A DNA stretch of 64,000 nt from Candidatus Omnitrophota bacterium (GTDB taxonomy: Bacteria > Omnitrophota > Gorgyraeia > Zapsychrales > Fredricksoniimonadaceae), in assembly GCA_013287965.1 (NCBI GenBank), contig JABDCU010000001.1, positions 5,910 through 69,909 of the forward strand. Reading direction: 5' to 3'. Each line of letters starts with the position of its first letter. Within the stretch, counting starts at the first letter, position 1. Made by a program: the position numbers and the translations under genes. Below the pieces are notes generated by a model. It saw nothing but the letters and a program-made list of their open reading frames with translations, ran no database searches and was not told the origin of the DNA. Of this stretch, positions 1 through 15,194 are shown one piece after another.

Positions 1-376
1 CCACATTGCCGTTGGTCACCACCAAGCCGCCTTGCGGGGTGCTGGTGCCGATGCCGATGTTATTGCTTCCCGTCGTGGAGTAAACGATCCCCACAGCCGT
101 GGTCCATCCGCTTAAGCCGCCGGCTGTTGACCAGGTCACGTCCCCGGTGCTGTCCGTTGCTGTCAGAACATACCCTGGCGCCGCACCCTGGCCGCTCACC
201 GCCAAGCCCGTCGAACGCACCGTGCCTTGCACATCCAGCGTCTGGCCGGGCGATGCGGAGCCGATACCGACATTCATATGAATGCTGGTATTAAAAGGCA
301 TGAATGAGGCGGCCGCCACAGGCGTCAAAGCCAGCAGCACCCCAAGACCCAAGATTATTTTACGCACGGTGTTCAT
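1..376 (-). CDS. N-terminal roughly 125 aa of a second, paralogous giant fibre protein. It is partial and continues beyond the window start.
   Basis: Hand translation of the minus strand from the ATG near 376 gives MNTVRKIILGLGVLLALTPVAAA then SFMPFNTSIHMNVGIGSASPGQTLDVQGTVRSTGLAVSGQGAAPGYVLTATDSTGDVTWS... Nt 1-265 are about 90 percent identical to the 270-bp repeat units inside the giant gene, for example 8790-9060. The ORF track omits it because it is truncated by the window edge. Confidence 0.6.
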   Translation of the reverse strand, partial: MNTVRKIILGLGVLLALTPVAAASFMPFNTSIHMNVGIGSASPGQTLDVQGTVRSTGLAVSGQGAAPGYVLTATDSTGDVTWSTAGGLSGWTTAVGIVYSTTGSNNIGIGTSTPQGGLVVTNGNV

Positions 377-440
377 AAAGATTTCTTGACATCACCCTTC
401 AAAGACCTGCCCTTTTCAAACATTGGTCCCCTTAATTCTG

Positions 441-700
441 TTACTTACAGCAATTAACATACGCCGTATAACCTGCACTGTTGCAAGTTATCCCTTGCCC
501 GCTCATTTGCACGTCACCGGAAGTGGTGCCGTTTGATACATAGCATGACCACTTGATCATCACCTCACCGGCACTGCAAGACGCACTGCCGGCGCCGCTC
601 CTTATCGTGCAGGTCCAGTTTGTTGGAGTAGAACCCGCGGCATCCACATACCCCTTAGCCGCCGCATCAGTGAACGCCGTGGATGTGGCAAGGTCATTGT
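441..700. repeat. 3'-terminal module (C-terminal Cys-rich domain coding region) shared at about 90 percent nt identity with 1318-1580.
   Basis: Direct nucleotide comparison of the last roughly 260 nt of the peptidase gene with the last roughly 260 nt of the fibre gene. Confidence 0.85.
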
Positions 701-1271
701 TGTGTCCCTTAAATTCAATTTTTCCTAAGATATCTCTCTTGTCAATGAGGCCAAACCTGGTTGCATCCAAGCTGCCGGAAACCTGATTACCCATGATGAG
801 ATAGGTGTTTTCCGGAAGCACGGGATAGCTTTTAATATAAAGTTCAAGCATCCGGATATTAGACCGGGAGATTTGATAAAATTCGCCCCGGGAATTCTTT
901 AAGGGCTTATCATCAACCATGATCCGCCAGCTGTTTTGGTCCTTATTTTCCTTAAGATTCCACCTGTCCCTGCCAACTGCCTTAACGAGCTTGATAATAG
1001 GCGCGTCACGACCCGTGTATTTGTAGGCAATGATGTCCCCCCTTTCGACTGGATGGCAGTTATAGTATCCATAAACTAACTTTACCGTCTCACCGGGATA
1101 GATCAAAGGAGCTAAAGAATATCCACGCACCTGTTTTAATTCAACCGTGGTAATGCAGCTGCCGGAATTGTCCCCCAGCGGCTTGCCCTCTTGCGCCTTG
1201 ATGGGAGTGACTCCTGAACCAAAGCACAAGATAAATAAGATTAAGAAAGTCCTTAGTCTTTTTAATTTCAT
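441..1271 (-). CDS. Membrane-anchored S26-family (signal peptidase I-like, Ser/Lys dyad) peptidase fused to a C-terminal roughly 85-aa Cys-rich module that is shared with the giant fibre protein.
   Basis: N-terminal TM anchor TFLILFILCFGSGV. S26 boxes are present. The Ser box is GYSLAPLIYPGE, box C is GDIIAYKY, the Lys box is IIKLVKAVGRDRW, and box E is YLIMGNQVSGSLDATRFGLIDKRDILGKI. The C-terminal TNWTCTIRSG...SCSAGEVMIKWSCYV..GITCNSAGYTAYVNCCK is nearly identical to the last 85 aa of the 2679-aa ORF. Confidence 0.8.
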   Translation of the reverse strand: MKLKRLRTFLILFILCFGSGVTPIKAQEGKPLGDNSGSCITTVELKQVRGYSLAPLIYPGETVKLVYGYYNCHPVERGDIIAYKYTGRDAPIIKLVKAVGRDRWNLKENKDQNSWRIMVDDKPLKNSRGEFYQISRSNIRMLELYIKSYPVLPENTYLIMGNQVSGSLDATRFGLIDKRDILGKIEFKGHNNDLATSTAFTDAAAKGYVDAAGSTPTNWTCTIRSGAGSASCSAGEVMIKWSCYVSNGTTSGDVQMSGQGITCNSAGYTAYVNCCK

Positions 1272-1317
1272 ACTATTTATCCCAGAAATTTGTCATTAAA
1301 TGTGTCCGTCACCTTTA

Positions 1318-1580
1318 TTATTTACAACAATTAACATATGCCGTATAAGCCGCGCTGTTGCAAGTTATGCCTTGTCCGCTCATTTGCGCGTCACCGAAAG
1401 TGGTACCGTTGAGTACATAGCATGACCACGTGATCATCACCTCACCGGCACTGCAAGACGCGCTGGTATTGCCACTCCTTATCGTGCAAGTCCAGTTTGT
1501 GGGAGTAGCAGCCGCGGCATCCACATACCCCTTAGTCGCCGCGTCAGTGGACGCCGTGGGTGTGGCAAGGTTAACGATCT
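1318..1580. repeat. 3'-terminal module of the fibre gene. It is the partner of 441-700.
   Basis: See 441-700. Confidence 0.85.
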
Positions 1581-4500
1581 TTTGACTGCCCATGTCCAGC
1601 GCGCCGGCCGGCGCCCAGGTACCGATACCTACGTTGCCGTTGGTCACGACAAAGGCTCCCTGCGGAGTCGTCGTCCCAATGCCCACGTTGCCGTTGAGAT
1701 CAATGGACATCTTAACGCTTGACGGCAGGGCCGTAGCGCTGGAACTGACCTGAAAATCCATACTCCCGTACGCGCTCAAGCCATCTGAAATTTGCCAACG
1801 GCGGCTGTTGGCATTTCCCACCGTGTCCGTCAATAAGATGCCAGGGACAGTGGCCGCAGCCCCGGCAGATGAAGCGATCTCGAATATCCTGGTCGGGGCC
1901 GTAGTGCCGATACCCAGATTACCGCCTGATGTAATAGCCATCTTCGTTCCACTGTAATCAAACAAGAGATTGTTCCCGGAAACGTATTGCGTCCACAGGT
2001 TCGTTGAGGTCGTTCGATCGGCAAGCTGCAATTGCCCCAGCGATCCAAAAATGTTCACGCGGCCATTCAAAACGCTGTCGCCGTTTACATTAAATAACCC
2101 CGTCGTTCCGCCTTGCGTATAGGCGCTCGTCGTGCCGATGCCCACGTTGCCGTTTTGGTCGATACGCATGCGTTCTGTATAGGTTGATCCATCGGTGGCA
2201 GTCTTGAATACAATGACCGGGTTCCCTGCATTTTGATCGTTGGCCTGGACTGACAAACCATTGTATGTGCCGTCACCCCACTGCCTTATTTCACCCCAAA
2301 TGTTTGTAGCGTTTCGCTGAACTCTCACCGCCGCCGTATTGGAAGCGGCAGCGACTTGCAATAGGGCGCCCGGCGCCGCCGTGCCGATGCCCACGTTGCC
2401 AGCGGTTGTTATTCTCATATATTCCGTATTGTTTGTTCTCAAAACCAACGGATGGTTGGTGGCAGTACTTAAGTATCCTGCACTATCATCAGCTCCAAGA
2501 GTGGCGGTCACTGGTGTGCCAGTAGACGTCACAAAAATTGTTGGGGAACTTGATCCGCGTACATTAATTCCGCTGCTTGTAGTACTCCCAATATCAACTG
2601 TCAGCTTTTTGTCCGGCGCCGCGGACCCAATACCCACGTTACCAGCGCTGGTGATCCTCATCGCTTCAGTCTCATTCCCGGTATAAACTCTAAAATTATC
2701 ACCACTATCCATCGTTTGAATAAAACCGCCTGTTGTATCCACTCCGAATTCAGCTTTTGATCCGCTTGTATCGGTAACACGCACCGCAGACTGGCCGTTT
2801 CGTGCAATTTCGAGACCGCCTCCATTGATCGTTGGAACTGTCGTGCCAATGCCGACGTTGCCGGAGGCATTAATGGCAAGCCGGGCAGCGCTGGCAGTCT
2901 CATCATAAATAGTGAAAAGGCCGGAGCCGATCCCGCTGCCTGTGCCGTTGGAGAACAAGGTAAACGCCCTGCCCGCCGCGCTGGTATTGCTTAAGGTCAA
3001 CCCGGTATCCGTTGAAGTGCTGGTGATCTTGGCCATTCTGACCGCACTGGTGCTGCCTTCTAAAATAAAACCATTGTTCGCATCGTTATAAACATATAGT
3101 TTACTGCTGGGAGCCGCAGAACCGATGCCGACATTGTCGCTTGTGTCCATTACGATGCCGTCGCTGCCAGCCCCTCCGCTGGTGCCTGTTATTGAGAATT
3201 TCCCGTTACCTGCTCCCCCTGAAGAAATAAACCAGTCCTTGTACCCATAATTATTCAAATCTATGACAGATTTATCCCCCGTTGTCCCGCCGCGAAGATA
3301 AATAGTGTTGTCCCCGCTGTCGCCATCGTTCCCGAACCGAAGCGTGCTGCCTCCCACAAGGCTTAATTTTGCCAGCGGCGCTGTCTGCCCGATGCCCACG
3401 TCGCCGTCCGTCTGGATGGTCAATTTGGGAGCGCTGGGGATGTCGGCATTGGTGCCTATCTTGAATTTATGGCTGTCCGCGTTATCGATCCCTGCAGACC
3501 AATTTTGCTGGCCGGGAACGCTCCAAACGACCACAGGGTTATACGCACTGGCACCACCTGTGGTCAGCTGCAGAGCGGCATAAGAGCCCGATGTGTTGCT
3601 GATGTTCTTCATCAGGAAGATCATTCCACTGCCAGGGACTGATTTTTCCATATCAATGTCATACGTCGGTGCCCAGGTGCCGATGCCGATATTGCCGTTG
3701 GTCACGACGAGACCACCCTGCGGGGTGGTGGTGCCGATGCCGACGTTATCGTTCGTTGTTGTATTGGAACCTGAAAGCGTCCAGCCGCTGGCGGAAACTG
3801 TTCCCGTGATCGTCCCGCTGGCACGGATATTGCCCTGCACGTCGAGTGTGGCACCCGGAGCGATTGAGCCGATACCGATGTTACCGGTGCTTGGAATATA
3901 CATCCGCAAATTATTTCCACCGGTGGTGAGCAGGAAATTATTCCCGGAATCAATGACCTCATCTCCTAACACGTCATGGGTAACGATGTCATTATTCTGT
4001 GTGGATACGCCAAGATATGATGCGGTTGCAAAAGCAGAAGTAAAAGTTATATAGGGAGTGCTGCCATTCGTGGTACCGGTTATGTTTAATTTTGAAATCG
4101 GTAGTGTCGTGCCAATACCCACATTGCCGCTAAAATAGGAGACTCCCGTTGAATCAGATGCTAAAGCATAATTTGTCCCCACGCCTCCTGTCACTGAATT
4201 GCCGAGCCGCAAAATCATATTATTGGTAATGGTGCCATTTCCCGACCTGAACGACGGCTCAAGATCCAAGGTCGCGGCTGTCGTTAATGTGTATCCTGTG
4301 CCTGTGGTTTGGACCGTGGGCTGTTCGAAATAGTTAAAATAATGAGTGGCACTATTTCCAGAAAGCGTGTACACAGCGGGAACGATATCAAGCGCGGCAC
4401 CCGGCACTGTCGTGCCGATACCCACGTTGCCAGAAGCGATTGTCATGTCCGGAGAGCCGCCAACTGTGCCGAAATAAATGTTGCCGCTCCCGGAGCCGGT

Positions 4501-7500
4501 ATCAACCATTCCGCCTCCTGACCCGTCCAATCTAACTTCTGAAAGCCGTGCCCGGTTAAGTCCGTAAAGCGTTCCTGAATATCCCGAGGCGTAAGAGTAC
4601 AGGGCAGATTGGTCGGACTGATCATTTCTTGCTGACACTTCCGCAATACCAGTGGTTCCAGCATTCATGTTAGACACATCAAACCGTAAATTCCCTGCAA
4701 ATGACTCTTTTACCTGCAGCACCGTAGCCGGTGCCCAAGTGCCGATGCCCACGTTGCCATTGGTAACAATGAGGCCGCCTTGCGGGGTGCTGGTGCCGAT
4801 GCCGATATTGTTGCTGCCCGTCGTGGAATAGACAAGTCCGGTACCTGTGGTCCAGCCGCTCAAGCCGCCTGCTGTTGACCAGGTCACGTCCCCGGTGCTA
4901 TCCGTGGCTGTTAACACATAGCCAGGAGCCGCACCCTGTCCGCTTACCGCCAAGCCTGTTGAGCGTACTACTCCTTGGACGTCTAATTTCTGGCCGGGGG
5001 CTGTAGAACCGATGCCCACGTTGCCGGTGTTTAATATAGTCATCACAGAATTACTCAGAGTCGGATTTGAAGTATCGGCCGTACTGTTTTGAAGGAAATC
5101 AAATTCTCCTCGGTTGAAAGACCCTGTTGTCGTATACGTGATCGCGCCTTTGCCGCGATTGGCGTCAAAACTGTCTTCCGAGAACAAAATACCCGCACCG
5201 TTTCCAGTCGTAGCGTTACTTGCCGCTATCCTTATGGGATAATACAGACCAGCTGTGCTGCTCGCGTCAACATCTAATGTTCTGCCCGGATTCGTCGTGC
5301 CGATGCCCACGTTGCCGCCGTTGGGATTTAACAAAATATTGTAAGTCGCGGATAAATCACTGTAGCCTGTTGCCTGTAACCAATACGCACCTGTAGAATA
5401 ATAATTTCCAAAGTCAAGGACCCCGCCATCCCTGCCTCTTAGGCGCAGAAGTCCATAAGTTTGGGTCGTGCCGCTGTTGGCAGGCAGGCCGCCTACCAAA
5501 TGCTGGACTTCCAAAGTGGCTGCCGGCGTCACTGTCCCGACACCCACGTTGAGGGATGTCGCTGCGATGCGCATCGCTTCGGTAGGTGATCCGCCAACTC
5601 CCGCTGAAAATCTCAATGCCTGGTCACTTTCAACAGTCCCCACTGTAGATTGATTCCTAAAGTAAAGAGTCCTGTCTGTGCTGCCTGTACTATCCATCCA
5701 TGTATCTCCAAATACAGTAAGTTTTGCGCCTGTAGGGCTTGTTGTCCCGATGCCCACGTTGCCGGTGTTATCTATTCTCATGCGCTCGGCGTTGTTCGTG
5801 CCCAACAGCAGACTGGTGGCGCCGGCGGTTGTAAACCCGAAATCCGTGGAGCTTCCGTTGGTAAAAGTGTAATTGCCACTGCCGCCGTACCCAATATCTG
5901 AACCGGCAACCCTAAAAACTAAAGCCAATCTTGTCAGGCCATCCGTGATCAATGTATTATTCGAACCAACCAAATGAAGTTGCCCTCCCGGCGCCCAGGT
6001 GCCGATGCCCACATTGCCGTTGGTCACCACAAACCCACCCTGCGGGGTGTTGGTGCCGATGCCGACGTTTTGCCCGCTGCTGATGGTCATGGCACGCGTG
6101 CTGTTGGTATAGAACTCCATGGCATTATCATCCGGAGCGCCGTTATTGATGGAATAAGCGATCTTTCCCTTATTCATCGTTGTCGCGTCTCCGAATTGTA
6201 TTCCCGTATCAGCCCCGCCCGCGTTTTCCGCTTCCAATTGGAGTATGGCGTCATTGCCTGATTGCGCATGGACCCTTATGTAAGCATCCCCATTGTTTTT
6301 GATGTCAAGCAATTGCCCAGGCACCGCCGTGCCGATACCTACGTTGCCGTTGACTACCAATTTGCCGCTGAGGCCGGACGTGTAGCCGATGCCGACATTC
6401 TGTGCCGTGTCGATCGCAAGCGCTGACGATCCGCCGGTTTGAAGCACAAGCGAACGGACCGTGCCCGTGCCGGCGGCGTCCGAATTGATCATGAGATTGC
6501 CTCCGCTTGTTCCGGTTACCAAGCGCTCATAATTTGAAGCGTCCGTGTATGTCTTGTAGACGCTGAATGTGGTCGTGCTGTTGGACCGGACGGCAACGCT
6601 GTTGCCGCCATCCCTGAAAAGATACGCGTCCGGCGAAGCAACTCCCGAACTGCCCCATTGGAAACTATTGGCCGAAGATAAAATGATATTGCCACCCTGC
6701 ACAACCAATGCCGCGCTCGGTGCCCAGGTGCCGATGCCCACATTGCCGTTGGTCACCACCAGGCCGCCCTGCGGGGTGCTGGTGCCGATGCCGATATTGT
6801 TACTGCCCGTCGTAGAATAGACAATGCCGGTGCCTGTGGTCCATCCGCTTAAGCCGCCTGCGGTTGACCATGTTACGTCTCCGGTGCTGTCAGTCGCTGT
6901 CAGCACATATCCGGGCGCCGCGCCCTGGCCGCTCACCGCCAATCCCGTCGAGCGCACCGTGCCTTGCACGTCGAGTTTCTGGCCGGGGGCTGTCGAGCCA
7001 ATACCCACATTACCGCCTGTCAAAACAGTTAACGCCTGTATGCCACCAGCCCCATTTGGAAATACACCAAAACCACTACTGCCCACAAATCCTGAGTACC
7101 CTAACCGTCCATAAGCGTCTGTGCCAAGATTCGTGATGCCTGCCCTGCCATAGACCGTCACACCCAAGCTCACGCCATCGTTTGAACCCTGGACCTTCAA
7201 ATCATAAGCATTGCCTGTGTTCGTAAAGTCTCCGATAGCGGTATTTCCTGAAACTTGAAGAGGATATTGCGGGTTGAACGTGCCTAGACCGACACTGCCG
7301 GAAACGATCAAACCGCTGGAAGGAGCAGTATTCAACCCGGCGTACGCGCCGATACCCACAGACCCGTTAACATCCAATTTATTAAGAGGTATCGTACCTC
7401 CATTGCCGATACCCACATTGCTGTCCCCTCCCCTGATCACAATGGCTGGGCTTGAAAACGTAAGTCCGGCTGTGACTGTTGAAGGGGTGATCTCAAAAGC

Positions 7501-9357
7501 GTTATTCAGGTTAATATTGTTGCCGATCTGCCACTTAAAATGAGTGCTGGACGTATCGTCATAAATCATTCTTCCGCCGCCGCCGTTGGAAATATGTAAA
7601 GGGGCCTGCGGGGTAAGGGTGCCGATGCCAACGTTGCCGTTGCTGTCAATGGTCATTCGGACGGCATTATTAGTGGCCAGCTGTAACGGATTCGAACTTG
7701 TTTGAAATCCAATAATGCTTGCGTAAGGTAAGTCTCCAGTAATAAAACCTCCACCGGCACTGCTTTCTACCCCCAAGACCAATGTTCCACCGGTGTTTGT
7801 TTCCTGTATCCCGACACGATTGGTCCCTGTCATTGATCTCATGGCAAAATCACCTTCAGCCGCTCTGAAGTCTATAGGATACTGCGTCGTCCAGGTACCA
7901 ATGCCCACGTTACCGTTGGTCACCACGAAGCCGGCCTGCGGAGTTGAGGTGCCGATACCGATGTTATTGCTTCCCGTCGTTGAATACACAAGTCCTGTGC
8001 CCGTGGTCCATCCGCTTAAGCCCCCTGCTGTTGACCAGGTCACGTCGCCGGTACTGTCGGTTGCTGTCAGCACATAGCCAGGAGCCGCACCCTGCCCGCT
8101 CACCGCCAAGCCCGTTGAACGCACCGTGCCTTGCACGTCGAGCTCTTGGCCAGGGGCATTGGAGCCAATACCAACGTTGCCCGGCAGGACGATCAGCGAT
8201 CCGCCAGGTGTCGTGGTGCCGATGCCCACGTTGCCGGACGAATCTATTCTCAATCTTTCATTAGAATTGGTGCTGAAAGCCAAAGTATGCGAAGCAGGAC
8301 GGAACATCCCGTTATTTGTATCGCCACCAAAAGTGAATATGGGAGCACCCGCCGTCCCGCCGCCATTACTGCCCGCGATAACACGGTTCCATATACTCGC
8401 ATCTGTTGAGAAAACGAAATTACCTTGGTCAAAAGAACCTCCTCCATAAACCTGTAACGCGTATCCCGGCGCCCAGGTGCCGATGCCCACGTTACCGTTG
8501 GTCACGACAAGACCACCTTGCGGGGTCGTGGTACCGATGCCGACATTGCCGGCAAAACTGCTTGCATTAGTACCTACCGAGATACTTCTCCATCGCAATG
8601 GCGTCGCTGTATTACCTAAATCGTAAACATTATCGCTCGATGGATAAAACGGATCGGCGGAACGCACGGAACTAAAACCCCCGCCGAGCCGTAATAAACC
8701 TGACCCTAGATCATCCACGGCAACTTGGTTATTAAGAAGCATCTGTGGGCCAAAATTTACGCTGCCGTTCACATCAAGTATCTTGCCTGGCGCCCACGTG
8801 CCGATGCCTACATTGCCGTTGGTTACAACAAACCCACCCTGCGGAGTTGATGTGCCGATGCCGATATTGTTGCTTCCCGTCGTGGAATAGACAAGGCCGG
8901 TGCCTGTGGTCCATCCGCTTAAGCCCCCTGCTGTTGACCAGGTCACGTCCCCGGTGCTGTCGGTCGCTGTCAGCACATAGCCGGGAGCCGCTCCCTGACC
9001 GCTCACTGCTAAGCCCGTTGAGCGGATAGTGCCTTGCACGTCGAGCGTCTGGCCGGGTGTCGCGGAGCCGATGCCCACGTTCATATGAACGCTGGTGTTA
9101 AAAGGCATGAATGAGGCGGACGCGGGCAAGGCAAACGCAAGGCAAAGCAAACCAGCGATGATCAAGCTCATTAATTTTGGTTTTGCCGCCCACTTCTTGC
9201 GGTCTTCCTCTATTAATTCCCTTAAGATCGTGACAAAAGACGGATCTTCCCCCCTCATTTTTCGCTCGAGGGCCTTGATCTTCAAGTACTGGTATTGGTC
9301 CCGTGTGAGATCAATAGAAGTCTTGATCATCCGCTCTGTGGGTTTGTTCTTTGGCAT
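1318..9357 (-). CDS. Giant (2679-codon ORF) secreted repetitive fibre or adhesin-like protein with NVGIGT-type tail-fibre-like beta-helix repeats. The mature fibre gene probably starts at the internal Met near 9171 (MSLIIAGLLCLAFALPASA signal peptide). The first 62 codons are an RHH-like module.
   Basis: Tens of repeats have consensus GNVGIGT(T/S)(T/A)P...(K)LDV(Q/N)G. Composition is strongly G/T/S/N-rich. An internal Sec signal peptide is followed by the SFMPFNTSVHMNVGIGSATPGQ motif, also found in the paralog at 1-376. There are four near-identical 90-aa blocks (KLDVQGTVRSTGLAVSGQGAAPGYVLTATDSTGDVTWSTAGGLSGWTTGTGLVYSTTGSNNIGIGTSTPQGG). A C-terminal Cys-rich module ends NCCK. Confidence 0.85.
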   Translation of the reverse strand: MPKNKPTERMIKTSIDLTRDQYQYLKIKALERKMRGEDPSFVTILRELIEEDRKKWAAKPKLMSLIIAGLLCLAFALPASASFMPFNTSVHMNVGIGSATPGQTLDVQGTIRSTGLAVSGQGAAPGYVLTATDSTGDVTWSTAGGLSGWTTGTGLVYSTTGSNNIGIGTSTPQGGFVVTNGNVGIGTWAPGKILDVNGSVNFGPQMLLNNQVAVDDLGSGLLRLGGGFSSVRSADPFYPSSDNVYDLGNTATPLRWRSISVGTNASSFAGNVGIGTTTPQGGLVVTNGNVGIGTWAPGYALQVYGGGSFDQGNFVFSTDASIWNRVIAGSNGGGTAGAPIFTFGGDTNNGMFRPASHTLAFSTNSNERLRIDSSGNVGIGTTTPGGSLIVLPGNVGIGSNAPGQELDVQGTVRSTGLAVSGQGAAPGYVLTATDSTGDVTWSTAGGLSGWTTGTGLVYSTTGSNNIGIGTSTPQAGFVVTNGNVGIGTWTTQYPIDFRAAEGDFAMRSMTGTNRVGIQETNTGGTLVLGVESSAGGGFITGDLPYASIIGFQTSSNPLQLATNNAVRMTIDSNGNVGIGTLTPQAPLHISNGGGGRMIYDDTSSTHFKWQIGNNINLNNAFEITPSTVTAGLTFSSPAIVIRGGDSNVGIGNGGTIPLNKLDVNGSVGIGAYAGLNTAPSSGLIVSGSVGLGTFNPQYPLQVSGNTAIGDFTNTGNAYDLKVQGSNDGVSLGVTVYGRAGITNLGTDAYGRLGYSGFVGSSGFGVFPNGAGGIQALTVLTGGNVGIGSTAPGQKLDVQGTVRSTGLAVSGQGAAPGYVLTATDSTGDVTWSTAGGLSGWTTGTGIVYSTTGSNNIGIGTSTPQGGLVVTNGNVGIGTWAPSAALVVQGGNIILSSANSFQWGSSGVASPDAYLFRDGGNSVAVRSNSTTTFSVYKTYTDASNYERLVTGTSGGNLMINSDAAGTGTVRSLVLQTGGSSALAIDTAQNVGIGYTSGLSGKLVVNGNVGIGTAVPGQLLDIKNNGDAYIRVHAQSGNDAILQLEAENAGGADTGIQFGDATTMNKGKIAYSINNGAPDDNAMEFYTNSTRAMTISSGQNVGIGTNTPQGGFVVTNGNVGIGTWAPGGQLHLVGSNNTLITDGLTRLALVFRVAGSDIGYGGSGNYTFTNGSSTDFGFTTAGATSLLLGTNNAERMRIDNTGNVGIGTTSPTGAKLTVFGDTWMDSTGSTDRTLYFRNQSTVGTVESDQALRFSAGVGGSPTEAMRIAATSLNVGVGTVTPAATLEVQHLVGGLPANSGTTQTYGLLRLRGRDGGVLDFGNYYSTGAYWLQATGYSDLSATYNILLNPNGGNVGIGTTNPGRTLDVDASSTAGLYYPIRIAASNATTGNGAGILFSEDSFDANRGKGAITYTTTGSFNRGEFDFLQNSTADTSNPTLSNSVMTILNTGNVGIGSTAPGQKLDVQGVVRSTGLAVSGQGAAPGYVLTATDSTGDVTWSTAGGLSGWTTGTGLVYSTTGSNNIGIGTSTPQGGLIVTNGNVGIGTWAPATVLQVKESFAGNLRFDVSNMNAGTTGIAEVSARNDQSDQSALYSYASGYSGTLYGLNRARLSEVRLDGSGGGMVDTGSGSGNIYFGTVGGSPDMTIASGNVGIGTTVPGAALDIVPAVYTLSGNSATHYFNYFEQPTVQTTGTGYTLTTAATLDLEPSFRSGNGTITNNMILRLGNSVTGGVGTNYALASDSTGVSYFSGNVGIGTTLPISKLNITGTTNGSTPYITFTSAFATASYLGVSTQNNDIVTHDVLGDEVIDSGNNFLLTTGGNNLRMYIPSTGNIGIGSIAPGATLDVQGNIRASGTITGTVSASGWTLSGSNTTTNDNVGIGTTTPQGGLVVTNGNIGIGTWAPTYDIDMEKSVPGSGMIFLMKNISNTSGSYAALQLTTGGASAYNPVVVWSVPGQQNWSAGIDNADSHKFKIGTNADIPSAPKLTIQTDGDVGIGQTAPLAKLSLVGGSTLRFGNDGDSGDNTIYLRGGTTGDKSVIDLNNYGYKDWFISSGGAGNGKFSITGTSGGAGSDGIVMDTSDNVGIGSAAPSSKLYVYNDANNGFILEGSTSAVRMAKITSTSTDTGLTLSNTSAAGRAFTLFSNGTGSGIGSGLFTIYDETASAARLAINASGNVGIGTTVPTINGGGLEIARNGQSAVRVTDTSGSKAEFGVDTTGGFIQTMDSGDNFRVYTGNETEAMRITSAGNVGIGSAAPDKKLTVDIGSTTSSGINVRGSSSPTIFVTSTGTPVTATLGADDSAGYLSTATNHPLVLRTNNTEYMRITTAGNVGIGTAAPGALLQVAAASNTAAVRVQRNATNIWGEIRQWGDGTYNGLSVQANDQNAGNPVIVFKTATDGSTYTERMRIDQNGNVGIGTTSAYTQGGTTGLFNVNGDSVLNGRVNIFGSLGQLQLADRTTSTNLWTQYVSGNNLLFDYSGTKMAITSGGNLGIGTTAPTRIFEIASSAGAAATVPGILLTDTVGNANSRRWQISDGLSAYGSMDFQVSSSATALPSSVKMSIDLNGNVGIGTTTPQGAFVVTNGNVGIGTWAPAGALDMGSQKIVNLATPTASTDAATKGYVDAAAATPTNWTCTIRSGNTSASCSAGEVMITWSCYVLNGTTFGDAQMSGQGITCNSAAYTAYVNCCK
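4733..5030. repeat. Intragenic 270-300 bp repeat unit, copy 4.
   Basis: See copy 1. It encodes the fourth KLDVQGVVRSTGLAVSGQGAAPGYVLTATDSTGDVTWSTAGGLSGWTTGTGLVYSTTGSNNIGIGTSTPQGG block. Confidence 0.8.
6718..7018. repeat. Intragenic 270-300 bp repeat unit, copy 3.
   Basis: See copy 1. It is marked by the antisense ORF 6824..7114 with VVHPLKPPAVDHVTSPVLSVAVSTYPGAAPWPLTANPVERTVPCTSS. Confidence 0.8.
7884..8180. repeat. Intragenic 270-300 bp repeat unit, copy 2.
   Basis: See copy 1. It is marked by the antisense ORF 7793..8077 with VVHPLKPPAVDQVTSPVLSVAVST. Confidence 0.8.
8790..9085. repeat. Intragenic 270-300 bp repeat unit, copy 1 of 4 in the fibre gene. A fifth copy is in the paralog at 1-265.
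   Basis: Near-identical DNA gcccacgtgccgatgcc...ccgcttaagcc...gttgaccaggtcacgtccccggtgctgtc... is shared among 8790-9085, 7884-8180, 6718-7018, 4733-5030 and 1-265. Confidence 0.8.
9172..9357 (-). other. RHH-like small-protein module copy A (62 codons). It is in frame with the fibre gene and not separated from it by a stop codon.
   Basis: MPKNKPTERMIKTSIDLTRDQYQYLKIKALERKMRGEDPSFVTILRELIEEDRKKW, then AAKPKL, then the fibre signal peptide. It is about 85 percent nt identical to 9367-9552. Confidence 0.45.
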
Positions 9358-9366
9358 TTTGTTACG

Positions 9367-9552
9367 TTACTTTTGTTTTTCTTTCCATTTTTTACGGTCT
9401 TCTTCTATTAATTCCCTAAGAATAGTGACAAAAGACGGGTCCTCCCCGCGCATTTTCCGCTCGAGGGCCTTGATCTTGAGATACTGGTATTGATCGCTGG
9501 TCAGATCAATAGAAGTTTTGATCATCCGTTCTGTGGGTTTATTTTTTGCCAT
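9367..9552 (-). CDS. Small (61 aa) putative ribbon-helix-helix / CopG-like DNA-binding protein, copy B of a tandem duplicate.
   Basis: MAKNKPTERMIKTSIDLTSDQYQYLKIKALERKMRGEDPSFVTILRELIEEDRKKWKEKQK. It has a beta-strand (RMIKTSIDL), helix (DQYQYLKIKALERKM), helix (SFVTILRELIEE) pattern typical of an RHH fold. It has its own stop codon and lies upstream of the fibre gene. Confidence 0.6.
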   Translation of the reverse strand: MAKNKPTERMIKTSIDLTSDQYQYLKIKALERKMRGEDPSFVTILRELIEEDRKKWKEKQK

Positions 9553-9740
9553 GAATGTAAAGACAGTGACTTGATTTTTATATAATTATTGCATTATTTC
9601 AAACTACAATTATCTAACAATATAATTATATAAAAAAAAATTCAGAAAGCTACACAATCTAAGGATTTCTTAAAGTAGTGAGATTTTCGTGTTTAGGGGA
9701 GTTTTAAGCAGAAACCTGACAATGGGTATTTATCCGTATT
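9553..9740 (-). promoter_or_regulatory. AT-rich upstream region of the RHH-fibre operon containing a perfect palindrome TATAATTATA (about 9621-9630) and a near copy (about 9581-9590). It is a candidate promoter or RHH operator.
   Basis: The low-GC, AT-rich 190-bp gap lies immediately 5' of the first gene of the minus-strand cluster. The palindromic decamer is repeated about 40 bp apart. No confident -35/-10 assignment was possible. Confidence 0.3.
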
Positions 9741-9759: not shown

Positions 9760-9978
9760 CTAGACTTGCTGAATGTGAACCATGCCAGGAACATGGTTCA
9801 AAAACAACTCTTTAAGGTCGAGCTTTATACTAGCATTGTCAATGTCGATCCCGACGATTTCACCGTCTTTGTCGTAATCAAGATTGACACCGGAAGATAT
9901 TTCCCGCGTCTCAGTGCTGGCTCTTGAGGATAGATCGATATAAAGCGAGTCTGTGTCTGAATAATAATTAATTTTCAT
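9760..9978 (-). CDS. DUF2283 family small protein.
   Basis: MKINYYSDTDSLYIDLS....LDYDKDGEIVGIDIDNAS matches the characteristic YDxEaDaLYI ... DyDedGnlvGIEIlnAS pattern of DUF2283. Confidence 0.7.
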   Translation of the reverse strand: MKINYYSDTDSLYIDLSSRASTETREISSGVNLDYDKDGEIVGIDIDNASIKLDLKELFLNHVPGMVHIQQV

Positions 9979-10168
9979 AGTTTAAACCCCCTGTCAAAAA
10001 AGGCATTATGTATCGTTGTCTTGTCATTAAGCGTCACGACCCGTAAAAACTTGTCCGACGTCTGGGATATTTTGCCCCAAAAGCGATAACGATTATCGTC
10101 CTGCATTTCGGCACGCAACGGGTTGAAGGAAAGTCGAAGATTTCTAAATCAAACATTCCCTTCCCTTT

Positions 10169-11347
10169 TTAATGTTCCCTTGAAATCGAACTTTCCGAAT
10201 GCAGGGAACAATAAGTCTCCAAAGCTTTACGCCAGGGAAGAACAACAACATCATTCTTTAATTTACGGGAACTGGTTTCTCTGAGAGACGCTATATAAAG
10301 CTTAACTTTAGGAAATCTTTTACGGAAAGCCATTACTGCGGCCTCAGATATGGTCTCTGAAGATGTTTTACATTCAAATGCCATCAACGGCCCCTTAGGG
10401 CCGGTGACCAACAGATCAACTTCCTGCTTGCCTTCTCTCCAAAAAGAAATTTCATCGGGTTTTTCATAGTAATCCCGCAGCCATCTTAATTCATTATAAA
10501 AAAATGTTTCAAATAAATGCCCTTTTTCCTGCGGTGTCGGCGGATCGACCAAACGGTTTTGCAACGCACGAACGACCCCGCAATCAAAAAAATAAAACTT
10601 GGGACGGGCTTTTTTACGTTCACTCCGGTCCCATGGCCATAAAAACGATCCCAAAAGAGTATCTTCCAGGATAGAAAAATATTCTTTGACCGTGCTCATG
10701 GGTACCGCGGAATCACGGGCAATAGACGAAAACTCTATTGTCTCCCCATTCATTTGCGCTGCTACATTTAAAAACCTTTGGAAAGCGCCGATATTACGGG
10801 TCAACGCTTCAGCCTGGACCTCTTCTTTAATATAAACCGTACCATAAGTTTTTAAACGGCGTCGAACGTCCTCTTCTTTGTCCTCTAAAAGAAAAGAGAC
10901 TATGAGCGGTAATGTCCCATAAGATAATGCCTTATCAATATCGAAATCACGGCCGATTTCTATGCTGGTCAAAGGATGCAGCCTCAAGTCAAGGGCCCTG
11001 CCTCCTAAAAGATTGGCGCTTCCACGCCGCAATTTTCTGGCACTTGAGCCGGAAAGGATAAATCTTAATTTTAATTCTTCAATCCCCTTCTGAACATAAT
11101 CTAAAAGCACGGGAACACGCTGAATTTCATCCACAATGACCAGTTGACCGCTCTTTAAAACCCTTAATTGTTCCCAAAATTCTTTTGGTGAGCGTTTAAA
11201 CTTAAGTTCTTCTTCAGGATCTAAAAGGTCAACGAATAGATCTGCCTTTAGACGGCGCAATAAATAGGTCTTTCCCGTCATGCGCGGCCCAAACAAAAAA
11301 AACGAACCTGAAATATGCTCTAACTTTAATAATCGCTGAAAGTCCAT
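10169..11347 (-). CDS. AAA+ ATPase of the AAA_14 / DUF4143 family.
   Basis: A Walker A-like FLFGPRMTGKTYLL, Walker B LVIVDEIQRV, and a C-terminal DUF4143-like region. Confidence 0.75.
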   Translation of the reverse strand: MDFQRLLKLEHISGSFFLFGPRMTGKTYLLRRLKADLFVDLLDPEEELKFKRSPKEFWEQLRVLKSGQLVIVDEIQRVPVLLDYVQKGIEELKLRFILSGSSARKLRRGSANLLGGRALDLRLHPLTSIEIGRDFDIDKALSYGTLPLIVSFLLEDKEEDVRRRLKTYGTVYIKEEVQAEALTRNIGAFQRFLNVAAQMNGETIEFSSIARDSAVPMSTVKEYFSILEDTLLGSFLWPWDRSERKKARPKFYFFDCGVVRALQNRLVDPPTPQEKGHLFETFFYNELRWLRDYYEKPDEISFWREGKQEVDLLVTGPKGPLMAFECKTSSETISEAAVMAFRKRFPKVKLYIASLRETSSRKLKNDVVVLPWRKALETYCSLHSESSISREH

Positions 11348-11414
11348 GTTTAAAGAATAACATATTTATGTTATTTGTCAATATTAAATAACATATTGTT
11401 GTTATATGCCTTAA

Positions 11415-13181
11415 TTACTGGTGGCGGCCGTTTGCTAAACGGCAGAGTTTTATGTCCCTGGCGGCTTCGGGGTTTAACGGGTCTATGCTCAAGACCTGCT
11501 GAAAATCTTTGAGGGCCTCCTGCGCGCGGCCTGCTTGCATCCACAACATCCCCCGCTCCATATACGCATCCTCAAATTGCGGCTCAAGCGCGATCGCGCG
11601 CCCCAGGTCATCCAGGGCTTCCTTATAATTATGCTGGGTTTGGTATACCCACGCCCTTTTCACATAGGTTGAAAAATAATTGGGGTCCATGGCGATCGAC
11701 TTATTTAGGTCTTCCAGGGCTTGGGCGGTCCGGCCTTGCTGGCCATAAATGATCCCGCGGTTCTCATAGGTAATATTATTAGGGCTGATGGCAATGGCAC
11801 GGCTTAAATAATAAATAGACGCGTCTAGCCGCCCTAAAGAGCCATACACCCTTCCCAAACTCGCGTTCACACGGGCCTTGCCCGGCGACTCCTTGATATT
11901 GTTTTCCCAAAGCGCTAACTCATTGGCCCAGACTTTATTGCGCTGAAAACTCATAAAGGCCAAAACAAAGACCAGGCAGTATAAAAAAAACCGGGACACA
12001 TTGACTTTTTGTATACCCAAAAAGTCAATGTGTCCCGGTTTTTTCCACACCAAAACGGACAAGGCAGACACGAAGGCCAAAATGAAGCCAAATGAGATGA
12101 GATACAATTTATGCTCAAAGATCACATTGAATCGGGGCACTAAATTGACAGAAAATGTGATCAGCATCCATGCCAAGCCAAACGCTATTAAAGGAAAGCT
12201 GCGGCGCAGCTTGATGATCAGGAAAATAAACCCCAAGATCACGCCTAATCCTGCCAAGGTCAACGGCGGATGGAGAAAACCGGTTGAGGCCGGATAATCG
12301 TAATCCACATTTTGATGGATGGGCAAGACCAAAAGGCGAAGGAAGGTCAAAAAAACCCTCATCTGGGTCAACACATAATGCGCCGTGGTAAAGACATCCC
12401 CATCGTGAGATTCAGAAGGGATTGTTTTTGAAAAATCAACCAACTGTAAATGCAGCATTTTTGAGAACAACAGGCACAATAAAAATCCGGCGGCGAGAAT
12501 TGTTAAATAATGTTTGTTATGGATTCCCGCCTTCGCGGGAATGACAGTGTTTAATAATATCCATTCGCAAGCCAGGACCATCACCGGCACAGTCATGATC
12601 ACTTCCTTGGTTAAAACCCCTAAAATGGTTGCGAGCCCTGCCAGCCCAAATAATGCCATTTGGTGTGTCTTGACCGTTGACAGGCGCGCGCGCAGATAAA
12701 AATATATTGTCCCGAAATAAAACACAGCGGCCATGGATTCAAAACGCTGGGTGATATAGGTCACGGCCTGGGTTTGGCATGGATGGACCAAAAAAAGGAG
12801 AGCGATTATGAAAGGAAGATCTTTGTGGATTCCCGCTTGCGCAGGAATGACAGTGCGCGCAGTGATCTTAAAAAGCAAGTCTGCCAGGGCCCACACTAAT
12901 CCCGTTGCGATAAGATGCACGATAAAATTAAAAATGTGATATCCCCGGGCATCAAGCTGGTTGAAATAATAATTTAACGCGAAGGAATACATGCCCACCA
13001 GACGGGTCAAGGGAAAGGTATGCCACATCATATGGAAATTGCTGAAATTCTTGATAAAAGGATTGGCAACGATGAAGAGATTGTCGTCAAAAACAAAACC
13101 GAATCGGAAGGTCTGGCCGTAGACCAAAAGTCCCAGCAGGATGAGGGCCAAGCAGCGTAAGAATATTTTATTGATGCGCAT
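11415..13181 (-). CDS. Polytopic membrane protein (TMTC / PMT_2-like N-terminal domain with FVFDD motif) with C-terminal TPR repeats. It carries three in-frame palindromic element insertions.
   Basis: About 10 predicted TM helices, then 4-5 TPR repeats (GRVYGSLGRLDASIYYLSRAIAISP...). The REP-1-derived peptides TVIPAQAGIHKD and TVIPAKAGIHNK and the REP-2-derived KKPGHIDFLGIQKVNVSRFF are visible in the translation. Confidence 0.7.
   Translation of the reverse strand: MRINKIFLRCLALILLGLLVYGQTFRFGFVFDDNLFIVANPFIKNFSNFHMMWHTFPLTRLVGMYSFALNYYFNQLDARGYHIFNFIVHLIATGLVWALADLLFKITARTVIPAQAGIHKDLPFIIALLFLVHPCQTQAVTYITQRFESMAAVFYFGTIYFYLRARLSTVKTHQMALFGLAGLATILGVLTKEVIMTVPVMVLACEWILLNTVIPAKAGIHNKHYLTILAAGFLLCLLFSKMLHLQLVDFSKTIPSESHDGDVFTTAHYVLTQMRVFLTFLRLLVLPIHQNVDYDYPASTGFLHPPLTLAGLGVILGFIFLIIKLRRSFPLIAFGLAWMLITFSVNLVPRFNVIFEHKLYLISFGFILAFVSALSVLVWKKPGHIDFLGIQKVNVSRFFLYCLVFVLAFMSFQRNKVWANELALWENNIKESPGKARVNASLGRVYGSLGRLDASIYYLSRAIAISPNNITYENRGIIYGQQGRTAQALEDLNKSIAMDPNYFSTYVKRAWVYQTQHNYKEALDDLGRAIALEPQFEDAYMERGMLWMQAGRAQEALKDFQQVLSIDPLNPEAARDIKLCRLANGRHQ
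11983..12046. repeat. REP-2 hairpin element copy A, located inside ORF 11415..13181 at the TM/TPR domain junction and read through in frame.
   Basis: aaaaaaaaccgggacacattgactttttgtatacccaaaaagtcaatgtgtcccggtttttt. Translated as KKPGHIDFLGIQKVNVSRFF. Confidence 0.8.
12519..12549. repeat. REP-1 palindromic element copy (tggattcccgcCttcgcgggaatgacag consensus).
   Basis: Seen directly. Other copies are at about 12826-12855, 14211-14240, 23529-23557, 52749-52778, 54790-54818 (degenerate) and 55596-55625. Confidence 0.85.
12826..12855. repeat. REP-1 element copy.
   Basis: tggattcccgcttgcgcaggaatgacagtg. Confidence 0.8.
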
Positions 13182-14238
13182 GTCTTAGCTGGCCACAGGC
13201 GGCGTTCACGTCTTTGCCTCTCGGCGTGCGGATAGTGGCATGGACACCGCTGTCTTCAAGGCTGTCTCTAAAGGCAGTCATTTCCTTGCCGGTAGGTGTT
13301 TGGTGCCCGAATTCTGAAACAGGATTATAGGGGATAAGGTTCATTTTGCAGATGATCCCTTTAAAAGCTTTTTTCAAACTCGCCACGGCGTGCGGCGTGC
13401 ACGTGACATCCTTAATGAGGATATACTCGAACGTTATCTGCCGGTTGGTTTTGCGGACGTAGTCACGGCAGGCCGCGATCAATTCATCAAACGGGTATTT
13501 TTTATTGACCGGCATGAGCACATCGCGGGAAGGATTATCATACCCGTGCAGGGAAATGGCCAATTCCACCTGCAAGCCCTCTTGGGCCAATTCCCTGATC
13601 TTCGGGACAACTCCGACGGTGGAGATCGTGATATGCCGCGCCCCTATATTAATGCCCTTGTCCGCATTGATGATGCGCACTGCTTTCATCAAATTAATAA
13701 AATTATCCAAAGGCTCCCCCGTTCCCATGAACACGATATTGGTCAACGGCCTCTTATGTTTCAAGGCCTCTTCCTTGACATGCAAAACCTGGGTGACGAT
13801 CTCAGCACAGCTAAGATTTCTCTTCCAGCCGCCGATACCGCTGGCGCAAAACTTGCAGCCGAACTTACAGCCGGCCTGGGTCGAAATACACGCGGTTGTC
13901 CTGGTTGCGGTGGGGATCAGGACACTCTCGATCTTCTCATGGTCATGAAGGTCAAAGAGAAATTTGGTGGTGCCGTCCTCGGAGACCAGCTTTTGGGCGA
14001 TCTCATTGGTTTTAAGGACAAGGTCTTTCTTCAAACGGTCCCTTAATCCTTTAGGGACATTGGTCATCGCGTCAAAACCCCAAGCACCTTTTTGATAGAT
14101 CCACTGGAAGACCTGGTCAGCGCGAAAAGGCTCTGCATCAACAGAGCGCAAGTACGCCGTCAATTCTTCCAAAGACAAATCACGTATATCTGGATGAGGG
14201 GTCACGTTTATGGATTCCCGCTTTCGCGGGAATGACAA
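13168..14238 (-). CDS. rlmN: 23S rRNA (adenine2503-C2)-methyltransferase RlmN (radical SAM). The annotated TTG start lies inside a REP-1 element, so the true start is probably downstream.
   Basis: CKFGCKFCASG radical-SAM CxxxCxxC motif. The RlmN/Cfr family has conserved GTGEP, ISLHG and a C-terminal Cys. The N-terminus MSFPRKRESI is a REP translation. Confidence 0.85.
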   Translation of the reverse strand: MSFPRKRESINVTPHPDIRDLSLEELTAYLRSVDAEPFRADQVFQWIYQKGAWGFDAMTNVPKGLRDRLKKDLVLKTNEIAQKLVSEDGTTKFLFDLHDHEKIESVLIPTATRTTACISTQAGCKFGCKFCASGIGGWKRNLSCAEIVTQVLHVKEEALKHKRPLTNIVFMGTGEPLDNFINLMKAVRIINADKGINIGARHITISTVGVVPKIRELAQEGLQVELAISLHGYDNPSRDVLMPVNKKYPFDELIAACRDYVRKTNRQITFEYILIKDVTCTPHAVASLKKAFKGIICKMNLIPYNPVSEFGHQTPTGKEMTAFRDSLEDSGVHATIRTPRGKDVNAACGQLRHAHQ

Positions 14239-14240
14239 TG
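14211..14240. repeat. REP-1 element copy at the 5' end of rlmN.
   Basis: tggattcccgctttcgcgggaatgacaatg. Confidence 0.85.
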
Positions 14241-14241
14241 T

Positions 14242-15192
14242 TTACTTCTCAACAAACTCCCCGATGTCACGGTATTTTTTGTAGCGGGCGTCTAAAAGCT
14301 CTTTGGGACTTAACGTGGACGCTTTCTTAAAATATTTAATGAGCGCTGCCTTCAAAAGAAGCGCTGATTCCTGCGGCTCCCGGTGGGCGCCGCCCAAAGG
14401 TTCAGGGATGATCTCGTCCACAATATTGAATTTGATCAGGTCTTCCCCGTGCAGCTTCAGGGCTTCCGCGGCTTGCGGGGCTTTTAAAGAAGAGCGCCAA
14501 AGGATGGACGCGCAACCCTCGGGGGAAATGACAGAATAATAGGCGTGCTGTAAAATAAAAACACGGTCAGCCACTCCTATCCCCAGGGCCCCGCCGCTGC
14601 CGCCCTCGCCGATGATCACCGCGGCAATAGGTGTCCTGATGCCGGCCATATCACGCAAATTTTCCGCGATGGCCTGGGCCTGGCCGCGTTCTTCCGCCCC
14701 GATGCCCGGATAGGCGCCCGGCGTGTCGATCAGGCAAATGACCGGCACATGGAATTTTTCCGCCAGGCGCATCAGGCGCATAGCCTTGCGGTAGCCTTCC
14801 GGATGGGCGCAGCCGAAATTGCGCAACACATTTTCTTTGACATCACGGCCCTTCTGGTGGCCGATGACCATCACCTTCTGCCCGTCGATCTTGGCAAAGC
14901 CGCCGATCATGGCCTTGTCATCGGCAAAAAGCCGGTCCCCGTGCAATTCCAGGAATTCATCGGTCATCATGCGGATATAATCAAACGTATAGGGGCGTTT
15001 GGGATGGCGGGCGATCTGGATGCGCTGCCAGGATGTCATCTTGTTATAGACATCGTTTTTGAGTTTCTCGAGCTTGGATTCCAGGCGCTTGATCTCCGGC
15101 TCAAGGGTCACCCGCTTGGAGCCCATTTGGCGCAGGTCATTGATCTTATGTTCAAGCTCGAGGATCGGCTTTTCAAAATCCAGGATGGCCAT
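14242..15192 (-). CDS. accA: Acetyl-CoA carboxylase carboxyltransferase subunit alpha.
   Basis: Strong similarity to AccA along its length (ARHPKRPYTFDYI, DTPGAYPGIGAEERGQ, IGEGGSGGALGIG, SVISPEGCASILW). Confidence 0.92.
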   Translation of the reverse strand: MAILDFEKPILELEHKINDLRQMGSKRVTLEPEIKRLESKLEKLKNDVYNKMTSWQRIQIARHPKRPYTFDYIRMMTDEFLELHGDRLFADDKAMIGGFAKIDGQKVMVIGHQKGRDVKENVLRNFGCAHPEGYRKAMRLMRLAEKFHVPVICLIDTPGAYPGIGAEERGQAQAIAENLRDMAGIRTPIAAVIIGEGGSGGALGIGVADRVFILQHAYYSVISPEGCASILWRSSLKAPQAAEALKLHGEDLIKFNIVDEIIPEPLGGAHREPQESALLLKAALIKYFKKASTLSPKELLDARYKKYRDIGEFVEK

Positions 15193-15194
15193 AG

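Follow-up and report, generated by a model that had tools for sequence, protein, structure and literature searches.

The DNA analysed here, a stretch of 64,000 nucleotides from a Candidatus Omnitrophota bacterium (contig JABDCU010000001.1, positions 5,910 to 69,909; assembly GCA_013287965.1) that is referred to as the window, begins with four open reading frames (ORFs) on the minus strand: a small gene for a ribbon-helix-helix (RHH)-like protein (RHH1; 9367-9552, 61 aa), a giant ORF in which a second RHH-like copy (RHH2) is joined in frame to a repetitive surface fibre (fibre 1; 1318-9357, 2679 aa), a gene for an S26 peptidase (441-1271, 276 aa), and the N-terminal fragment of a second fibre (fibre 2; 1-376). 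An earlier reading of this DNA from its letters alone (the sequence-only reading) had mapped these ORFs correctly and taken them for one cassette. The main finding of the present analysis is that peptidases of this S26 subfamily have a widespread partnership with genes that end in a tail-fibre collar motif and a variable tip, whereas the fusion of peptidase and tip in a single gene is found only in the window. On balance, the enzyme is probably a dedicated processing protease for such collar/tip proteins, as its gene neighbours suggest, although we hold this substrate assignment with limited confidence. Comparative sequences are metagenome assemblies throughout.

The S26 peptidase and its collar/tip neighbours

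The description of the peptidase as an intact Ser/Lys enzyme is borne out by its profile matches (PF10502, E=1.4e-12, 48.3 bits against a cut-off of 22.9; TIGR02227, a marginal 50.6 bits against a cut-off of 47), by its invariant catalytic residues, and by the type-I signal peptidase fold of its AlphaFold2 (AF2) model, in which the predicted local distance difference test (pLDDT) score exceeds 90 across residues 40-189. The box B nucleophile S52, the box D general base K94, and D169 and R172 are invariant among 23 homologues, while G161 and N162 are conserved in at least 90%; box E has the form GDN…S.DSR. The family profile matches Staphylococcus aureus SpsB (E=8e-16), with the catalytic residues aligned to GESMDP, VKRVIGVPGD, and DSRAFG, and Foldseek relates the model to SpsB (1e-6), SipA (4n31; 8e-5), and LepB (4e-4). 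Residues ~40-186 are, by profile and model, a bona fide type-I signal peptidase for which signal-peptide cleavage itself is predicted, and a hydrophobic helix at residues 4-19 would serve as a membrane anchor or in export across the membrane. The closest named peptidases come from an Omnitrophota metagenome-assembled genome (MAG; 64%, truncated) and an “Altiarchaeota” MAG (55%). A scan of viral contigs returned no relatives of the peptidase family, and a phage origin of the gene was rejected on that ground.

The S26 subfamily was sampled through 22 protein-database homologues, 27 genome loci, and 51 metagenome loci, and its named hosts are mostly Patescibacteria, joined by Omnitrophota, Elusimicrobia, a gammaproteobacterial MAG, Desulfosudis, and two MAGs labelled as archaeal. 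Matches to a hidden Markov model (HMM) of the collar motif were counted within 3 kb of the peptidase (near) or farther away (far), with within-locus density as the control. Of the 32 genome loci, 21 have a collar near the peptidase, for a total of 22 near matches and no far ones, and so do 10 of the 20 evaluable loci of the metagenome set, which is independent, with 25 matches near and one far; over both sets, 47 matches fall within 3 kb of the peptidase and a single one beyond. The proposal that the peptidase is tied to fibre or tip genes, and is not a random neighbour, is thus upheld by its adjacency to collars in both sets.

The sequence-only reading had also described an 8-Cys module common to the C-termini of the peptidase and fibre 1. 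The same module does stand at both ends, but it holds six cysteines, and its first ~25 residues are a generic tail-fibre collar motif rather than part of the specific tip. The 3′ ends of the peptidase gene (441-694) and the fibre gene (1318-1571) share 88% nucleotide identity across 254 nt, with the similarity starting at the stop codons and none downstream, and at the protein level 71 of 84 residues match (84%), with a ratio of nonsynonymous to synonymous substitution rates (dN/dS) of 0.28. A search of the 86-aa shared piece against 1.84 billion representative proteins gave 434 matches, most of which cover residues 1-25/47 only, the stretch that corresponds to the collar motif ITNLAxPTxxxDAATKxYVD and is present in up to 21 copies per tail-fibre-like protein, some of these with S74 ends. 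Ten positions are invariant in the 63-aa tip module that follows, namely P, W, I, G, and the six Cys. Its homologues are few, each in a small protein of 93-256 aa, and searches of Pfam, NCBIfam, and PDB profiles returned no meaningful match for it.

Other members of the S26 subfamily end 16-31 residues past a D[AS]TRFG motif, whereas the window peptidase runs on for 108 residues. In locus L075 the two parts are encoded separately, in the order of a 1131-aa NVGIG fibre, an S26 gene, a 152-aa protein with a transmembrane (TM) segment, collar, and SWTC…WCCQ end, a second S26 gene, and a 144-aa protein with a TM segment, collar, and …ANCCQ end. Residues 36-186 of the window ORF align with the L075 S26 protein (E=5e-40), and residues 202-276 with the product of the 144-aa gene downstream of S26 (E=2e-11). 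Because it aligns with both of these adjacent genes, the window ORF is a Rosetta-stone fusion of the two in which the small protein lost its own membrane anchor, and its equivalence to two neighbouring genes is classical evidence that peptidase and tip module work together. The alternative that the module was copied straight from the 3′ end of fibre 1, as its sole origin, was rejected, since L075 has a separate small gene in exactly that place and the fibres of relatives lack collar and module. In L075, the pair of S26 gene and small TM/collar/6-Cys gene is itself present as a tandem duplicate (3741-6366), directly downstream of the 1131-aa fibre, with one S26/partner pair at 3741-4373 and 4410-4868.

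Partner proteins and a candidate cleavage site

The proteins encoded beside S26 have heterogeneous N-termini, which include canonical Sec AxA sites, a conserved mature end of the form W-x-E-P-x-x-x-P-P-x-x-N, and type IV prepilin signals (PF07963), the last seen in at least seven cases. Their stalks vary from none up to dozens of NVGIG repeats, and their tips comprise DUF1554/endostatin-like, Gly_rich_2, 6-Cys, and other modules, usually with a Cys within the last four residues. Because the N-termini are so mixed, the collar, a small-residue tract, and the tip emerge as the only common denominator of these partners. Directly after YVD, where the HMM ends, the successive residues are A in 85%, A in 67%, G/S/A/V in 86%, and G/A in 78% of partners. 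The pattern AA[GASTV][GAS] follows YVD in 50-59% of collars that neighbour an S26 gene (50% when the 52 non-identical partners are counted), whereas its share is 1% among 763 generic collars and 3% among last-copy ones.

Two groups of Patescibacteria partners deserve separate mention. The S26-adjacent proteins of L013, L018, L020, L026, L050, L061, and L114 are type IV pilin-like (GF[ST]L.E signal, PF07963) and combine NVGIG repeats, a collar, and a C-terminal tip, for example of the DUF1554/endostatin-like type, and they look like pilus-borne tail-fibre adhesins. In L016 (3868-7865), L024 (10442-11404), and L032 (10680-11861), one to four genes for paralogous TM and collar proteins come after the S26 gene, and the glycine-rich tips of these proteins (PF21722, Gly_rich_2) end in …VEW(V/A/T)E.

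We propose that the locus would be a chromosomal site for giant, secreted adhesin fibres resembling phage tail fibres, and that two units would contribute to it. The regulatory unit would consist of a palindromic operator/promoter and one or two small RHH-like genes, the 3′ end of the RHH gene normally overlapping the fibre start codon. The maturation unit would be a pair, made up of a short, membrane-anchored, intact S26 enzyme and a gene ending in a collar (…ITNLxxPTxxxDAxTKxYVD), the tract A-A-[GSAV]-G, and a tip that varies and in most cases is rich in Cys. In the window, fibre 1 has a collar and tip of this kind, and the peptidase would carry “the fibre’s tip” because its gene has also become fused with the small collar and tip gene that usually lies downstream. 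The sequences themselves show the gene linkage, the catalytic residues, both fusions, and the palindrome, while the substrate, the place of cleavage, and binding of the RHH protein to DNA are inferred.

If the enzyme is a processing protease, cleavage in the small-residue tract right after the collar is slightly favoured as the site, at something short of an even chance. We lean this way because the tract is the only feature found in all partner classes and is strongly enriched beside S26, because pilin-type partners need no S26 at their N-terminus, and because a fusion of enzyme and module stays viable if the enzyme frees the module. Such cleavage would be the counterpart, in trans, of what the S74 C-terminal chaperone does when it cleaves itself, or of the action of a procollagen C-propeptidase. 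Under the same protease model, removal of an N-terminal signal or anchor, as carried out by SipW, is a possibility to which we give somewhat less credence, and docking or another role takes up the remainder. More speculatively, and in our estimate rather unlikely to hold in full, the short S26 subfamily and the collar/AA-x-G/tip proteins may represent an unrecognised two-gene maturation system for the tail-fibre-like adhesins and pilus-tip fibres of ultrasmall, episymbiotic lineages, cutting in trans at the collar-tip junction, of which the window gene would be a natural single-chain version.

Several observations weigh against the dedicated-protease reading and its favoured cleavage site. Roughly one third to one half of S26 loci are without a collar gene by the HMM, which misses variant partners, and most partners have plausible AxA sites at their N-termini. 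The tips are very diverse and look like receptor-binding domains, so that cutting them off seems counter-productive, and the AA-x-G tract could be a mere linker of the subfamily. The dN/dS of the two module copies may predate the fusion, in which case it is no proof that the fused module is maintained, and the AF2 model of this module (pLDDT <50) is unusable. To our knowledge, characterised membrane-anchored Ser/Lys S26 enzymes, with the exception of TraF, cut N-terminal signal or leader peptides.

In a second assignment, which we consider doubtful, the S26 enzyme would be a dedicated peptidase for the signals or anchors of fibre-family N-termini, following the precedent of SipW acting on TasA and TapA (PMC9245690), and the fused tip would either ride along or help in docking. 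The enzyme has the fold and dyad of a type-I signal peptidase and nearly all partners have an N-terminal hydrophobic segment, yet at least seven partners bear type IV prepilin signals, which are cut on the cytoplasmic side by prepilin peptidase. Many partners have V/A-x-A motifs, some of them unusually far (~12-14 aa) from the hydrophobic core, that could need a special enzyme, whereas the canonical AxA sites of the WxEP-type partners could be cut by a housekeeping LepB. Furthermore, the fibres of relatives share the SFMPFNT-type signal end yet have no adjacent S26 gene, and the fusion in the window drops the N-terminal anchor of the partner and retains its collar and tip.

Fibres, RHH-like genes, and the upstream palindrome

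The tail-fibre-like nature claimed for the fibre ORF is confirmed by matches to PHROG families phrog_9942 (E=5.6e-69) and phrog_18345 (E=4e-65), and its 37 N[VIL]G[IV]G…P…L repeats fit the capping-loop motif of mosaic adhesive trimer (MAT) and tail-fibre-like fibres. Searches of Pfam (E up to 0.1) and NCBIfam gave no match for fibre 1, the S74 domain included. The stalk contains four internal copies of a 300-nt module, and a fifth is found in the start of fibre 2 (3-302). Fibre 2 was rightly taken for a paralogue, as the two have a common post-signal motif and a dN/dS of 0.06, and the signal end SFMPFNTS of fibre 1 matches both fibre 2 and the fibres of L034, L116, and L119.

The RHH copies are near-identical, as had been claimed, with 83% DNA identity over 182 nt between RHH1 and the opening 56 codons of the giant ORF and ~92% identity in protein; because their dN/dS is 0.03 at a synonymous divergence (dS) of 1.3, both are taken to be translated and constrained. 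Their identity as RHH proteins stands in part only: the predicted β-α-α topology (AF2 model of RHH1, pLDDT 80; strand 11-17, helices 19-35 and 41-60) and the conserved upstream palindrome speak for it, but family matches are not significant. No significant match was obtained for the window protein against Pfam or for the family against PDB profiles, and among 31 family members a match to RHH_1 was seen in one (E=0.12) and to the VapB antitoxin in one (E=0.013). Foldseek of the model gave nothing significant (best E=3.3; ParD 2an7 at 7.8), while hhalign produced a weak alignment to RK2 ParD (E=0.008 over 18 N-terminal residues) and nothing for CopG. The RHH1 family comprises 73 small homologues of 46-103 aa with 65-97% identity. 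A copy precedes each of the three fibre genes in L034, and copies stand in tandem in L035 and L119. In L116, a single 123-aa ORF (5205-5576) contains two RHH units in tandem, possibly a single-chain dimer, which fits the tandem RHH genes of the window, L035, and L119.

As a rule in this family, the fibre start codon lies inside the RHH tail in another frame and opens a sequence of the form (M/V)G(R)KTKIN…, with the starts MGRKTKIN, MGRETKIN, MERKIKIN, and VERKTNIK among relatives. The in-frame fusion of RHH2 to the fibre, described in the sequence-only reading, is present in the window, but it departs from this norm of separate, overlapping ORFs, as the hydrophobic core of the signal peptide is in frame with RHH2 instead of with the start at VGGKTKIN. 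Because the old start is still visible yet out of frame, and the signal core lies in the RHH2 frame, the fusion is best read as a frame change in the A-rich overlap of the signal-peptide region. Its possible causes are a genuine mutation, a switch by phase variation, and an indel from sequencing. The overlap of RHH tail and fibre start is full of A-runs (A4-A7), both in the window (9160-9200 and 9367-9400) and in L034 (10130-10165), and a one-base slip in such runs could swap the fibre between the canonical and RHH frames, a form of phase variation.

Upstream of RHH1 stands TTTTTATATAATTAT…ATAATTATATAAAAA, an inverted repeat of 15 nt that is perfect and whose spacer is variable; in the window it forms the core of a 23-nt inverted repeat. 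This palindrome occurs once in the 64-kb window (0.00 expected by chance) and, among 119 loci, only in L034, L035, L116, L118, and L119, each time just upstream of the first RHH gene, and is absent in the other 114; L034 has a second copy ~300 nt farther upstream. Every RHH-fibre locus encountered has it ahead of its first RHH gene, which makes five independent loci. Promoter-like sites on the minus strand at 9620-9593 and 9602-9574 overlap the palindrome, and promoter and terminator scans of the region as a whole were not above chance. The palindrome is a candidate operator/promoter to which the RHH protein would bind.

Locus L119, from a relative, is syntenic with the window and has the order ChlI-like, DUF212, YkuD, accA, rlmN, TPR, two RHH genes, fibre, and fibre. 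No peptidase gene stands between its fibres, and L119, L034, L035, L116, and L117 are without any collar or S26 gene. A conserved four-gene cassette, as first supposed, did not withstand this gene-neighbourhood comparison. In this small sample, the peptidase tracks the collar and tip rather than the RHH gene or the SFMPFNT signal end, because the RHH-fibre relatives are without both collar and S26, and the window locus is best described as combining two separable conserved units. In L119, a 3104-aa fibre (10165-19479) has the tail of the RHH protein, …EENRKKWNAKQT, as its own C-terminus, and the start of the next fibre (19458 onward) overlaps it; this junction is either a reused junction cassette between fibre genes or a recombination scar.

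Origin of the two fusions

Both fusions could instead be neutral or deleterious by-products of frequent recombination among fibre paralogues, which would leave the fused module functionless and the peptidase perhaps a general LepB paralogue, an explanation that we regard as improbable. The peptidase-module fusion cannot be upheld as a shared architecture, as it was seen in the window only, among ~100 homologues, yet the link between S26 and collar genes at large is strong and does not depend on it. The catalytic part of the peptidase gene has a guanine-cytosine (GC) content of 0.44 as opposed to 0.54 in the fused module, the latter like the fibre, and the dN/dS of the module is not decisive; against this, both fused ORFs are intact and the fused module retains 10/10 of the family-invariant residues. 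At the second junction, the frame in which RHH2 meets the fibre differs from the canonical one, and L119 offers another junction scar in its fibre with an RHH tail, although RHH2 is itself under strong purifying selection.

It is very improbable that a misjoin or indel in the metagenome assembly created the shared 3′ module or the in-frame RHH2-fibre junction. The locus is repeat-rich and the window proteins come from a single contig, but a collapse or misjoin is unlikely for the module because its two copies have 12% of their positions different and the fibres have no repeat in common with the peptidase side of the junction. NCBI and JGI both record an identical peptidase protein, though on one contig. 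The sequence around the RHH2/fibre junction is A-rich, and an indel of one base there would produce the fusion.

Feature map and neighbouring genes

Table 1. Features of the fibre locus, and positions of the palindrome in other loci (numbered within each locus).
Feature	Position	Strand	Basis or remark
Inverted repeat, candidate RHH operator/promoter	core 9579-9632 (TATATAATTAT...ATAATTATATA); arms 9567-9589 and 9622-9644	.	overlaps promoter-like hexamers
RHH1, stand-alone RHH-like protein, 61 aa	9367-9552	-	ORF
RHH2, second RHH copy, residues 1-62 of the 2679-aa ORF	9172-9357	-	in frame with the fibre signal peptide
Vestigial canonical overlapping fibre start	9092-9193	-	GTG at 9193 (VGGKTKIN), +2 frame of the RHH2 tail; leaves the frame and reaches a stop
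Fibre 1 signal peptide h/c region, M63-A81 (MSLIIAGLLCLAFALPASA), then conserved mature end SFMPFNTS	9115-9171	-	read from sequence
Fibre 1 stalk, Gly/Thr-rich β-helix-type repeats	1582-9114	-	37 N[VIL]G[IV]G motifs
Fibre 1 collar motif KIVNLATPTASTDAATKGYVD, then AAAA tract	1507-1581	-	collar HMM, E=9e-13
Fibre 1 tip, 63-aa module with 6 Cys (…NWTC…NCCK), and stop codon	1318-1506	-	sequence
S26 peptidase proper: anchor, catalytic domain, linker FKGHNN	696-1271	-	Pfam/TIGRFAM, model, homologues
Catalytic Ser, S52	1116-1118	-	
Catalytic Lys, K94	990-992	-	
Collar (D193-G213) and 6-Cys tip module fused to peptidase, and stop codon	441-695	-	88% nt identity to 1318-1571
Start of fibre 2 paralogue, signal peptide MNTVRKIILGLGVLLALTPVAAA then SFMPFNTS…	1-376	-	sequence; continues beyond window edge
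Palindrome, L034	1514-1543 and 1203-1248		
Palindrome, L035	9890-9919		
Palindrome, L116/L118	5130-5183		
Palindrome, L119	9742-9771		

Between the TPR gene and RHH1 lie a DUF2283 gene (9760-9978), with a short ORF remnant before it, and a gene for an AAA_14/DUF4143 ATPase (10169-11347). The genes at 9760-11347 look like an insertion; in the syntenic L119, the TPR gene stands directly before the RHH genes. Elsewhere in the window, Pfam gave no matches for a secreted protein of 744 aa that is rich in coiled coils and has recurring P(S/P)V(I/V)VQ segments (18173-20407) or for a 1597-aa ORF with a signal-like N-terminus (48224-53017), and the latter, at a GC content of 0.40 versus 0.49 for the window, was possibly acquired by horizontal transfer.

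Comparison with known systems

The lifestyle supposed for Patescibacteria and Omnitrophota is attachment to other cells or predation on them, and little is known of how they build and diversify their attachment fibres. An S26 subfamily that reliably marks fibre-tip genes would help to annotate hundreds of adhesin candidates that now lack annotation, among them mini-tips of 90 aa, fibres of 3 kaa, and tips fused to pilins, and would also offer a testable maturation step for fibres. The natural fusion in the window is direct genetic evidence for joint action of protease and tip, and the RHH gene with its palindrome would be a defined regulatory element for giant fibre genes. No description of the S26-collar/tip pairing, the 6-Cys module, the RHH family, or the palindrome was found in the searchable literature, and nothing relevant was found on the repeat motif or on dedicated signal peptidases with tail fibres or in the candidate phyla radiation (CPR).

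Five known systems invite comparison. SipW is an endoplasmic reticulum-type Ser/His enzyme, whereas the window-type peptidases are P-type Ser/Lys enzymes with an invariant Lys in box D. TraF, another S26 member, is a dedicated membrane enzyme of TrbC conjugative pilin maturation that acts at the C-terminal end of its substrate, and the window peptidase has a weak match to the TIGR02771 model (E=6e-4, 19 bits against a cut-off of 100); it differs in that no conjugation context surrounds it and the substrates are unrelated. In Bacillus subtilis, SipW is a product of the tapA-sipW-tasA operon and processes the fibre subunits TasA and TapA (PMC9245690), and the window-type S26 is likewise encoded beside fibre-type genes, as its collar neighbours in both locus sets attest (21/32 and 10/20). 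The partners here, however, are tail-fibre-like collar/tip proteins without a TasA/camelysin Pfam match, while TasA forms jelly-roll subunits, and the feature common to the partners is C-terminal and not the signal peptide.

The SipA/LepA proteins of the pilus islands of Streptococcus pyogenes are alike in that a signal-peptidase fold is dedicated to surface-fibre assembly, and the SipA structure 4n31 is a structural neighbour of the window peptidase (E=8e-5). SipA of streptococcal pili is, however, without the Ser/Lys dyad and works non-catalytically (PMC4049620), whereas S52 and K94 are invariant in the window-type S26.

Among tail fibres themselves, the S74 systems (the intramolecular chaperone of phage tail fibres and endosialidases, and S74-type MAT fibres) likewise have a Ser/Lys protease at the C-terminal end of a trimeric β-helical fibre, with similar collar and capping-loop repeats (PMC10769870), but S74 is an unrelated fold that is fused in cis and has an SDxxxK motif, whereas the enzyme here is of the S26 fold and as a rule has a gene to itself, and fibre 1 ends in the 6-Cys module with no S74 domain. 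The MAT fibres of Bdellovibrio are cell-encoded, tail-fibre-like adhesins with capping-loop repeats of the VG(G/N)xxxPxxxL type, swappable C-terminal tips, a conserved N-terminal MAT domain of ~130 aa, and trimeric assembly (PMC10769870). The window fibre resembles the non-S74 class of these in its capping-loop-type repeats and PHROG tail-fibre matches, the features on which the two were compared; in contrast, fibres here reach 2.6-3.1 kaa, and an RHH gene, a palindrome, and an S26 partner are not described for MATs in that paper (PMC10769870). None of SipW, SipA, TraF, S74, and MAT pairs a Ser/Lys S26 enzyme with tail-fibre collar/tip proteins. If cleavage at the collar-tip junction proves true, the S26 enzyme would take the role that in phage fibres falls to S74, a domain unrelated to it.

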